6,192 nt of DNA, taken from IMG/VR virus record IMGVR_UViG_2534681649_000007; one strand, 5' to 3'. Both the position numbers and the translations under genes were made by a program. Position 1 is the stretch's first letter. Every line of letters starts with the position of its first letter. Under the pieces are notes generated by a model. The model was not told the DNA's origin, did no database searches, and saw only the letters and a list, made by a program, of their open reading frames with translations. The DNA comes from a virus. Taxonomy: Duplodnaviria > Heunggongvirae > Uroviricota > Caudoviricetes. Below, in pieces: positions 1,353-3,396 of this stretch.

Positions 1353-1377
1353 CTTTCAAATGCCCATGTGAAGTGGT

Positions 1378-1521
1378 CAACAAAAACTGGCCACCGAGTT
1401 AGAGTTTTTCCAGTATCGATTTTCCGATTCGTTTGGGGGTAACCCACCGTTATATTCGTGCGGTCTTAGTGCGCTGTAATATCCAACGATATAGTCCGTT
1501 ATGGCGTGAGCTGCCTCGCTG
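1378..1521 (-). pseudogene. IS911 orfB 3' fragment, separated from the rest of orfB by the IS1 insertion
   Basis: Minus-strand translation continues the OrfB frame: ...AHAITDYIVGYYSALRPHEYNGGLPPNESENRYWKNSNSVASFC, stop TGA at 1378-1380 inside the IRR. Confidence 0.8.
1513..1521. repeat. 9-bp target-site duplication (GCCTCGCTG), left copy, for IS1
   Basis: Identical 9-mer immediately flanks both IS1 ends (1513-1521 and 2290-2298). Confidence 0.9.
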
Positions 1522-1576
1522 GGTAATGCTGCCAACTTACTGATTTAGTGTATGATGGTGATTTTAAGGTGCTTGC

Positions 1577-1852
1577 GTGGCTTCCATTTCCATCAGATGT
1601 CCTTCCTGCTCCGCTACTGAAGGCGTGGTGCGTAACGGCAAAAGCACTGCCGGACATCAGCGCTATCTCTGCTCTCATTGCCGTAAAACATGGCAACTAC
1701 AGTTCACTTACACTGCCTCTCAGCCCGGTACGCACCAGAAAATCATTGATATGGCCATGAATGGCGTCGGATGTCGCGCCAGTGCACGCATTATGGGCGT
1801 TGGCCTCAACACGGTTTTACGTCACTTAAAAAACTCAGGCCGCAGTCGGTAA
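1577..1852 (+). CDS. insA: IS1 InsA (zinc-finger/HTH transposition regulator), GTG start
   Basis: 91-aa product [37 protein letters not shown]... with a CxxC...CxxC motif. In-frame A AAA AAC slippery site near the 3' end. Confidence 0.9.
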
Positions 1853-2274
1853 CCTCGCGCATACAACCGGGCAGTGATGTGATTGTCTGCGCTGAAATGG
1901 ACGAACAGTGGGGCTACGTCGGTGCTAAATCACGTCAGCGCTGGCTGTTTTACGCGTATGACAGGATACGGAGGACGGTTGTGGCGCACGTCTTCGGTGA
2001 ACGCACTCTGGCCATACTGGAGCGTCTTCTGAGCCTGCTGTCGGCCTTTGAGGTCGTGGTATGGATGACGGATGGCTGGCCGCTGTATGAATCACGCCTG
2101 AAGGGAAAGCTGCACGTTATCAGCAAGCGTTACACTCAGCGCATTGAGCGACATAATCTGAATCTGAGACAACATCTGGCAAGGCTGGGACGGAAGTCAC
2201 TGTCGTTCTCAAAATCGGTGGAGCTGCATGACAAGGTCATCGGGCATTATCTGAACATAAAACACTATCAGTAA
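1771..2274 (+). CDS. insB: IS1 insB reading frame (expressed as the InsAB' transposase by -1 frameshift from insA)
   Basis: Open frame in -1 relative to insA overlapping its 3' end. Product ...[19 protein letters not shown]...[52 protein letters not shown]... matches IS1 InsB as recalled. Stop at 2272-2274. Confidence 0.85.
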
Positions 2275-2289
2275 GTTGGAGTCATTACC

Positions 2290-2298
2290 GCCTCGCTG
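2290..2298. repeat. 9-bp target-site duplication (GCCTCGCTG), right copy, for IS1
   Basis: Identical to 1513-1521. Confidence 0.9.
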
Positions 2299-2993
2299 AA
2301 GCTTACGTAACCCACCACCGGCATCCATTCGTTCTTCAGACTCCTGAAGAAGCGTTCCATTGGGCTGTTATCCCAGCAGTTTCCGCGCCGGCTCATACTC
2401 TGTCTGATCTGGTATCGCCACAATAACTGCCGGAACTGCCTGCTCGTATAATGACTGCCCTGATCGCTGTGGAACATCACCCCGCCGGGCTTACCACGGG
2501 TTTCCCATGCCATTTCCAGCGCTTTCATGGTGAGCCTGCTGTCCGGCGAGAACGACATGGCCCAGCCCACTGGTTTTCTTGCGAACAGGTCGAGAACAAC
2601 GGCGAGGTACGCCCAGCGCTTACCCGTCCAGATACAGGTCACATCACCGCACCACACCTGATTTGGCTCGGTCACGGCGAACTGCCTTTCAAGGTAGTTA
2701 GGGATAGCAACATGTTCATGACCACCACGTTTATACCGGTGAGTCGGCTGCTGACAGCTGACCAGCCCCAGCTCTTTCATGAGCCTGCCAGCAAGCCAGC
2801 GTCCCATCTGGTAGCCTCTCCGGGTTGCCATTGTGGCGATGCTTCTTGCTCCGGCCGAACCATGGCTGATACCATGTAGCTCAAGTACCTGACTGCGTAA
2901 TACAGCCCGTCTGCCGTCTGGTTTTTCAGGACGGTTTTTCCAGTATCTGTAGCTGCTGCGATGAACCCCGAACACTTGGCAGAGTGTGACCAC
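2290..2993 (-). pseudogene. IS911 orfB (DDE transposase domain), 5' portion, C-terminally interrupted by IS1
   Basis: Translation ...[43 protein letters not shown]...[17 protein letters not shown]...[11 protein letters not shown]...SFSEA contains the DDE-type motifs. The frame continues upstream to the A6G slippery site (T-run 3066-3071 on plus). The last 5 codons and stop of the tracked ORF (2268-2289) come from IS1. Confidence 0.85.
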
Positions 2994-3019
2994 AGGATAA
3001 TGCGCTCTGAGTTTCCCGA

Positions 3020-3352
3020 TTATCGAGAACTGTTCAGGGAGTCTGACATCAAGAGCGCGGTAGCCTTTTTTAATATTTCATTCTCCATTTCAATGCGTTG
3101 TAGCTTTTTCCTCAGCTTACGTATTTCGATTTGTTCTGGTGTTATCGGAGAGGCTTTTGGTGTTTTGCCCTGACGCTCATCACGCAGTTGTTTGACCCAT
3201 CTTGTCATTGTGGAAAGGCCAACATCCATAGCTTTGGCGGCATCTGCCACCGTGTATTTCTGGTCAACAACCAGTTGAGCGGATTCGCGTTTAAACTCTG
3301 CGCTAAAATTTCTTTTTTCATTGGAGCACCTGTGTTGTTCTGAGGTGAGCAT
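3020..3352 (-). CDS. IS911 OrfA (HTH protein) with atypical N-terminal extension
   Basis: Product ...[98 protein letters not shown]. In-frame ATG at 3350-3352 lies inside IRL behind the SD GAGGTGA. The ATG directly before the A-run (ATGAAAAAAGAAAT, 6 A) is out of frame. Confidence 0.8.
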
Positions 3353-3396
3353 ATCACCTCTGTTCAGGTGGCCAAATTCAGTGTGCCACTTCAGGT

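Follow-up and report, generated by a model that had tools for sequence, protein, structure and literature searches.

The stretch of viral DNA analyzed here (the window; 6,192 nucleotides of IMG/VR record IMGVR_UViG_2534681649_000007) belongs to a lambdoid prophage and carries, in place of part of that prophage, a copy of the insertion sequence (IS) IS911 with an IS1 element nested inside it. On the minus strand the order is a Cro/DicC-like regulator, a YdaT-like gene, IS911::IS1, a terminator-like hairpin, four tRNAs and a holin, an arrangement that an earlier note had read from the sequence and that was borne out by Pfam domain calls, ARAGORN tRNA predictions and folding (energy and z score). 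Nothing but IS911::IS1 lies between ydaT and the terminator hairpin, where functional lambdoid prophages carry replication genes, the nin region, Q and the late promoter. Positions 1-6149 are 99.92% identical to Shigella boydii ATCC 8700 (CP026731.1), a YdaT protein identical to that of the window is found in many Shigella assemblies, and the locus is already present in published genomes (e.g. SbBS512_E0691). CP162080.1, CP099865.1 and CP160646.1 are further assemblies of the window type. In window-type genomes the region adjoins a truncated integrase gene (int), ybhA and modC. The IS elements and their flanks are located as follows, with IRL and IRR denoting the left and right terminal inverted repeats of IS911:

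1366-1368: left IS911 flank, ATG; the late-region side endpoint of the deletion proposed below.
1369-3393, minus strand: IS911, with the IRR tip at 1369 (TGAAGTGGTCAAC on the plus strand), the IRL tip at 3393, and orfA and orfB on the minus strand.
1369-1521, minus strand: the 153 bp of IS911 nearest IRR, with the 3′ end of orfB; identity to other IS911 copies is 100%.
1513-1521 and 2290-2298: the two copies of the 9-bp IS1 target duplication, GCCTCGCTG.
1522-2289, plus strand: IS1, 768 bp, with insA at 1577-1852 and insB′ at 1771-2274.
2290-3393, minus strand: IRL-proximal 1,104 bp of IS911, with orfA at 3020-3322 and the truncated orfB′ at 2268-2993.
3394-3396: right IS911 flank, GGT; the early-region side endpoint of the proposed deletion.

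The element is a true IS911, yet it is not a simple insertion. Its imperfect terminal inverted repeats are of the TGAAGTGG type with 5′-TG...CA-3′ ends (IRL, TGAAGTGGCACACTG... at 3393; IRR, TGAAGTGGTCAACAA... at 1369), an A6G -1 frameshift site (TTAAAAAAGG, at ~3067-3073, 320 nt from the IRL tip) links orfA and orfB, and Pfam detects HTH_Tnp_1 on orfA and rve on orfB′. Over 1,095 bp the sequence is 99.7% identical to copies named by PGAP as "IS3-like element IS911 family transposase", and only 93.6% identical to an ISEc52 copy. IS911 is a member of the IS3 family that moves by copy-out-paste-in transposition and produces a 3-bp (rarely 4-bp) duplication at a simple insertion. The window copy shares the element sequence, the ends, orfA/orfB and the frameshift site with such a canonical insertion, but it lacks the duplication, bridges sites 8.7 kb apart, and has its orfB split by IS1. 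The absence of a duplication holds at both lengths, with ATG facing GGT at 3 bp and CATG facing GGTG at 4 bp, and the boundaries and flanks were found where the earlier note had placed them. A sibling IS911 in the integrase gene of window-type genomes has CAG on both sides, where intact int genes have a single CAG; a simple IS911 insertion in the same prophage therefore does leave a duplication. Since the IS911 junction is the same in at least six independent assemblies (L003, L006, L007, L009, L015 and L016), it is not an assembly artefact.

The nested IS1 has 23-bp terminal inverted repeats (arms at 1522-1544 and 2267-2289, 87% complementary), contains the Pfam domains Zn_ribbon_InsA, HTH_Tnp_IS1 and DDE_Tnp_IS1 (E 1e-73), and is 99.5-99.7% identical to other Shigella IS1 copies. 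It cost OrfB its last 44 codons, which, as had been proposed, lie after the DDE motifs: the rve core is complete (2-102 of 102) and rve_3 ends at 32/67. The earlier note had also held that IS1, with its intact 9-bp duplication, arrived after IS911. GCCTCGCTG is present on both sides, and the later arrival is supported because alleles with an identical IS911/tRNA-side junction (L004-type and L037, described below) are IS1-free. A look-up of the OrfB′::IS1 fusion open reading frame (ORF) returned 3 assemblies, in each case only at this locus, and the IS911::IS1 composite has therefore not spread.

Relatives were compared as contigs fetched around the locus (~60 were read), not as whole Shigella chromosomes; their annotation is that of PGAP, and flanks were extracted for every IS911 copy in the fetched loci. 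The intact comparison prophages were L013, from E. coli FDAARGOS_943; L002 (also L026), the ybhA prophage of E. coli FDAARGOS_944; and L024, from CP026875.1, another near-intact copy. The right flank, including its hairpin and up to the junction, is 100% identical in nine E. coli genomes. In FDAARGOS_943, and in a Shigella assembly (L011) that still has the O/DnaB module in its prophage at the ybhA locus, this flank runs on as GGCACC/AGACGAGG... (the slash marks the junction), and the ATG of an HTH_36 O-like gene follows 17 bp past the junction, with a DnaB-type helicase gene next. The left flank in intact relatives runs on as ...CCATG/TCTGCTATTCGCC... toward a Q-like gene, whose stop codon is 61 bp further. 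In FDAARGOS_943 the two breakpoints, which are identical or nearly so to the window in sequence, lie at 4337 and 13001, with strand and order preserved. The 8,663 bp that separate them carry 15 annotated coding sequences (CDS). This interval contains O-like, DnaB helicase, DUF977, hok, DUF1367, DUF1364 and Q-like DUF1133 genes.

The flanks are ~5.7 kb apart in the ybhA prophage of FDAARGOS_944. At this site L002, L024 and L026 have the whole stretch from early to late genes, in the order int, xis, recE, rha, ydfA, repressor, cro, ydaT, O-like, ydaV-like, DUF977, queH and hok, followed by DUF1367, DUF1364 (YbcO), DUF1133, four tRNAs, holin and lysozyme. The DUF1133 product passes the Pfam Phage_antitermQ model at 29.4 bits, over a cut-off of 26, and its gene is therefore designated Q-like. 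Thus the two flanks do occupy separated positions of one lambdoid phage, which is the check that the earlier note had proposed, and the interval between them in relatives holds the O/P-type, nin-region and Q-like genes whose IS911-associated removal it had proposed.

Contiguous flanks in a relative had been named in advance as evidence against such a removal. When a 400-bp query made of both flanks joined was searched against 5,426 E. coli genomes and 50,697 phage records, no genome and no record had the flanks adjacent, with both halves of the query covered. This result bears on the simplest alternative, an ordinary IS911 insertion into a phage naturally without the module, followed by loss of the duplication through point mutation. 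The shortness of a 3-bp duplication is all that speaks for decay of this kind; all 3 positions differ (ATG versus GGT), the flanks are adjacent in 0/5,426 E. coli genomes and 0/50,697 phage records, and the L037 allele still has 99 bp of O-gene sequence beside IS911. We regard this alternative as refuted. An 80-bp junction query matched 0 E. coli genomes, with its best partial match in E. coli UTAK-1; that match is an unrelated IS3-family element in a different ydaT allele at the rspB locus and is taken here only as a possible sign of target preference. The IRR/terminator junction had no match among GTDB representatives, in which S. boydii is evidently not represented, so that this search is silent on reciprocal flanks.

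A predicted earlier state of the window junction was retrieved through a 57-residue ORF running from the O start through IRL. The allele found, L037 (Shigella assembly CP026842.1), consists of ydaT, 173 bp, one intact IS1-free IS911, the terminator hairpin, four tRNAs and a full-length, 71-residue holin. The 173 bp comprise 74 bp of intergenic sequence and 99 bp more, the last 83 bp of which are O coding sequence. Its IRR junction is that of the window (CATGGACATTTG), and its IRL side keeps 99 bp more of the O region. If these 99 bp, the IS1, and the IS600 that interrupts the holin gene are set aside, L037 and the window are 99.1-99.6% identical over three segments. The large deletion is already present in L037, and at least two steps were needed to form the window junction, which refines the single event envisaged in the earlier note.

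Other S. boydii strains carry further versions of the region, and the prophage remnant is structurally polymorphic among them. In the L004-type group, which includes S. boydii 600657 and CDC 3083-94, an IS1-free IS911 has the same terminator-hairpin junction as the window, its O-side junction is displaced by 99 bp into the O gene (...GCTGGCTG/IRL), and the ydaT-to-rha segment is inverted between two IS911 copies. The O-side junction of L005 is 28 bp beyond that of the window. L035 represents the inversion product before further loss, with the N-terminal part of int still beside IRL, and an IS600-mediated inversion of the rha-to-holin segment, seen on comparison of L003 with L007, sets ATCC 8700 apart from L003. 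All three IRL endpoints in the O region (+0, +28 and +99 relative to the window) fall at the exact IRL tip and none has microhomology. In L005, TGAA stands both at the end of the flank and at the beginning of the IS, and both copies are present; microhomology-mediated deletion was accordingly rejected for all three endpoints. Because the endpoints lie exactly at the terminal nucleotide of IRL without microhomology, the joints are attributed to transposition chemistry, as opposed to slippage or random breakage.

These alleles also bear on whether each junction could have arisen in one step. In such a scheme, a simple IS911 insertion at the terminator site would be joined by an independent second IS911 at +0, +28 or +99, and recombination between the copies would delete 8.6-8.7 kb each time. 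All endpoints are exact IS tips, as fresh insertions predict, and the IRR junction is common to all alleles. However, two to three independent large deletions would be needed where one large and a few small ones suffice, and the +28 allele, L005, has both the inversion and the IS600′ junction that characterize the +99 type B alleles, which leaves a small step as the only reasonable reading of its endpoint. An IS911 at the terminator site with an intact Q side was seen in 0 of the ~60 contigs. We consider a one-step origin unlikely.

Taken together, these data argue that the window spans the immunity-to-lysis part of a heavily decayed lambdoid prophage of S. boydii at ybhA/modC, and that IS911 marks the scar of an IS911-anchored deletion there, in which a large loss came first and a 99-bp loss and the IS1 insertion came later; we put the probability of this reading at roughly 0.85. 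Two observations identify the deletion as IS-anchored: the flanks are collinear and separated in FDAARGOS_943, and an earlier allele, L037, has the IRR junction fixed and more DNA at IRL. In the proposed sequence of events, IS911 would have entered the prophage and ~8.6 kb on one side of it would then have been lost, giving an L037-type allele. In the window lineage a further 99 bp beside IRL would have been removed, which would place the IRL tip 17 bp upstream of the former O start codon. IS1 would subsequently have inserted into orfB with a normal 9-bp duplication, leaving the rve core and eliminating the C-terminal 44 residues, and IS600 copies would have truncated the holin gene and inserted beside ydfA. 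The block removed would comprise the O-like, DnaB-type helicase, DUF1627, DUF977, hok, DUF1367, DUF1364 and Q-like DUF1133 genes, together with any promoter after DUF1133. The deletions themselves could have occurred by either of two routes. The ends of IS911 may have attacked nearby DNA in the same molecule, or a second IS911 may have inserted nearby in direct orientation, with homologous recombination then removing one copy and the intervening DNA. The two routes leave identical products and are indistinguishable from sequence.

Several points weigh against this reconstruction. The order of events is derived from structural parsimony, not from a strain phylogeny. No simple IS911 insertion with a duplication was present at either breakpoint among the fetched loci, and either breakpoint may therefore be the side of the original insertion. 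A simple promoter scan identified no late promoter PR′ in relatives. The missing module may survive elsewhere in the Shigella chromosome beside another IS911, and the left flank has its best E. coli match (99.9%) in a different FDAARGOS_944 prophage than the right flank. Each of the last two points corresponds to a distinct alternative.

If the module had been moved by IS911-IS911 inversion or translocation instead of being deleted, its reciprocal product would read IS911 TTGACCACTTCA joined to (CTG)ATAATGCCAGCG at one end and GCGAATAGCAGA(CAT) joined to IS911 TGAAGTGGCACAC at the other, where ATAATGCCAGCG is the remainder of the O gene past the breakpoint and ...GCGAATAGCAGA is the Q-side sequence. 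Inversions of the region mediated by IS911 and IS600 do exist (type B alleles; L007 versus L003), and the comparison covered the fetched loci as opposed to whole Shigella genomes. A single inversion would nevertheless flip one flank, while both keep the orientation and order of the intact prophage; moreover, in window-type genomes the only other IS911 in the prophage, that in int, still has its full CAG duplication and is thus uninvolved. Relocation of the module is very improbable on these grounds. Slightly less probable again is an origin of the flanks in two lambdoid prophages that IS911 recombination joined, the intervening chromosomal DNA being lost. The left flank is 99.9% identical to one prophage of FDAARGOS_944 and the right flank 97.9% identical to another, 727 kb away, and such differences in best match, while typical of lambdoid mosaicism, leave some room for a join of this kind. 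The ybhA prophage of the same strain nonetheless carries the tRNA/hairpin segment at 99.8%, both flanks are found in a single prophage in L013, L024 and L026, and in Shigella the region still has int-ybhA at one end and phage tail genes at the opposite end.

The remnant has neither replication genes nor a late-gene activator, and it keeps a repressor/Cro/YdaT switch and four tRNA genes; the IS911-anchored deletion explains why it is unable to replicate or to activate its late genes. The earlier note had added that the late genes were left without Q or PR′. The Q-like gene is gone, as stated, and the concern is largely moot, because IS600 has cut the holin short and window-type genomes have no lysozyme, Rz, terminase or head genes. 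Loss of PR′ itself is suggested by position. A consensus promoter scan of the interval from the Q-like gene to the hairpin in L002 yielded no PR′ candidate, the only promoter-like site being beside the tRNAs.

Deletions of this kind are known, and the present case involves no new element or mechanism. For IS150, another IS3 family member, duplication-free deletions in the long-term evolution experiment all lay next to a pre-existing copy and often grew stepwise (PMC11708052). The window resembles these IS150-adjacent deletions (PMC11708052) in that the IS is kept at the junction, no duplication is present, and growth proceeds in steps from a resident copy. The IS150 deletions were seen in real time with earlier states sequenced, whereas the window series is reconstructed from natural Shigella strains; here IS911 is involved, and a prophage module was lost. 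The Rac and Qin prophages of E. coli K-12 have a dicA/dicC, ydfA and ydaS/ydaT-type immunity region and are defective, with large gene blocks lost. The window prophage differs from them in its location at ybhA/modC and in the loss of its replication-to-Q block at a defined IS911 joint, and, unlike Rac and Qin, it has intermediate alleles that survive in related strains. Shigella is a genus known for IS-driven genome decay, and the locus provides a natural example of IS-driven prophage dismantling in which ancestral-like, intermediate, inverted and further-eroded alleles are all found in sequenced strains. For annotation, IS911 here is a deletion scar and not an insertion; the alleles are also a possible dataset for the study of stepwise IS-adjacent deletions.

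A comparable event was found in S. flexneri. In ATCC 29903 (L018, 1523-2771) an independent IS911 without a duplication is flanked by a truncated Q-like DUF1133 gene and a fragment of a lysis gene, and in L023 (4156-5404) the IRR junction is the same as in L018 and ~2.6 kb more has been lost on the IRL side, up to hok. As in the window, this related prophage has a duplication-free IS911 at a deletion joint in its late regulatory region; the S. flexneri insertion is independent, has other breakpoints, keeps the replication genes and loses the tRNA, holin and lysozyme genes.

With this case, four secondary deletions were reconstructed, all beside IRL and with the IRR junction fixed: +99 to +0, +99 to +28, the int N-terminus to an IS600 tip, and DUF1133′ to hok (S. 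flexneri). A polarity in the way IS911 erodes neighboring DNA is a tentative and rather doubtful interpretation of this pattern. Intrinsic asymmetry of the IS911 ends or target preference may account for it, and four cases are too few to be set against chance or selection for retention of the tRNAs.

The IRR-side targets of independent insertions were observed to be alike (CAGACAT/GACATTT...AAAGAGC). GACATTT is common to the terminator flank CATGG(G/A)CATTTGAAAGAGC (window 1339-1368) and the int flank CAGACATTTTTAAAACAGC (L003, 2600-2636), and CAGACAT is present in both intact target sites. In E. coli UTAK-1 (L027, ~5995-6020) an IS911-like IRR abuts CTGGGCTTTGAAAGAGCGCCCG inside the different ydaT allele. 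Judged from sequence, the likeness of the IRR flanks may reflect target preference.

The remaining features of the window are listed below.

1-448, minus strand: partial IS600 (the window starts inside it), left tip at 448; the orfA translation is MSRKNQRYSKEF..., and PGAP names its homologue IS600.
446-637, minus strand: S21-type class II holin, cut to 63 residues by IS600 (Pfam Phage_holin_2_1, E 1.8e-33).
930-1240, minus strand: tRNA cluster, Gly(tcc), Thr(tgt), Arg(tct) and Met/Ile2(cat), by ARAGORN.
~1328-1358, minus strand: terminator-like hairpin with a U-run at the tR′ position (fold -20.3 kcal/mol, z -4.5).
3394-3466, minus strand: ydaT-O intergenic region, 73 nt, with a long hairpin without a U-run (fold -37 kcal/mol, z -5.8).
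3467-3889, minus strand: YdaT-like gene in the CII position, 140 residues (Pfam YdaT_toxin, E 2.4e-11).
3873-4100, minus strand: Cro/DicC-like regulator, 75 residues (Pfam P22_Cro, E 3.1e-13).
4177-4584, plus strand: DicA/CI-like repressor, 135 residues, divergent (Pfam HTH_3, Phage_CI_repr).
4787-4939, plus strand: YdfA-like DUF1391 gene (Pfam DUF1391; annotated in relatives as DUF1391 family protein).
4984-6149, minus strand: second IS600, truncated at the orfA start, 99.7-99.9% identical to IS600 copies.
6150-6192, minus strand: end of another IS1, truncating the second IS600; inverted repeat of 2247-2289, 93% complementary.

The terminator-like hairpin, which was detected by folding and not flagged by a consensus terminator scan, is also present in L002 and L013, ~73 bp past the Q-like DUF1133 stop codon. 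The IRL tip of IS911 is 2 nt past the base of the ydaT-O hairpin. ARAGORN calls the CAT tRNA (1164-1240) Met; in a 99.9% identical E. coli gene PGAP gives tRNA-Ile, the lysidine-modified ileX type, which is also a feature of Stx-phage tRNA clusters. A promoter-like sequence, TTTGCA-18-TATTAT, occurs at 1250-1279 (minus strand), between the terminator hairpin and the first tRNA, and expression of the tRNA cluster from this predicted site may be independent of the lost late promoter.

The holin is 71 residues long in intact relatives, and the TGA of the IS600 tip (446-448) supplies the stop codon of the truncated form. The IS600 at 1-448 is 99.5-99.8% identical to full IS600 copies in the fetched loci. 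The IS1 end at 6150-6192 has a terminal 23 bp of the IRL type and the interior sequence of the right end; it is lacking in ATCC 8700, and since none of the fetched loci has an IS1 at position 6150, the source strain differs here from ATCC 8700. The two IS600 copies form direct repeats (1-349 and 5799-6149, 97-100% identical), and recombination between them would remove the whole immunity region together with IS911::IS1.

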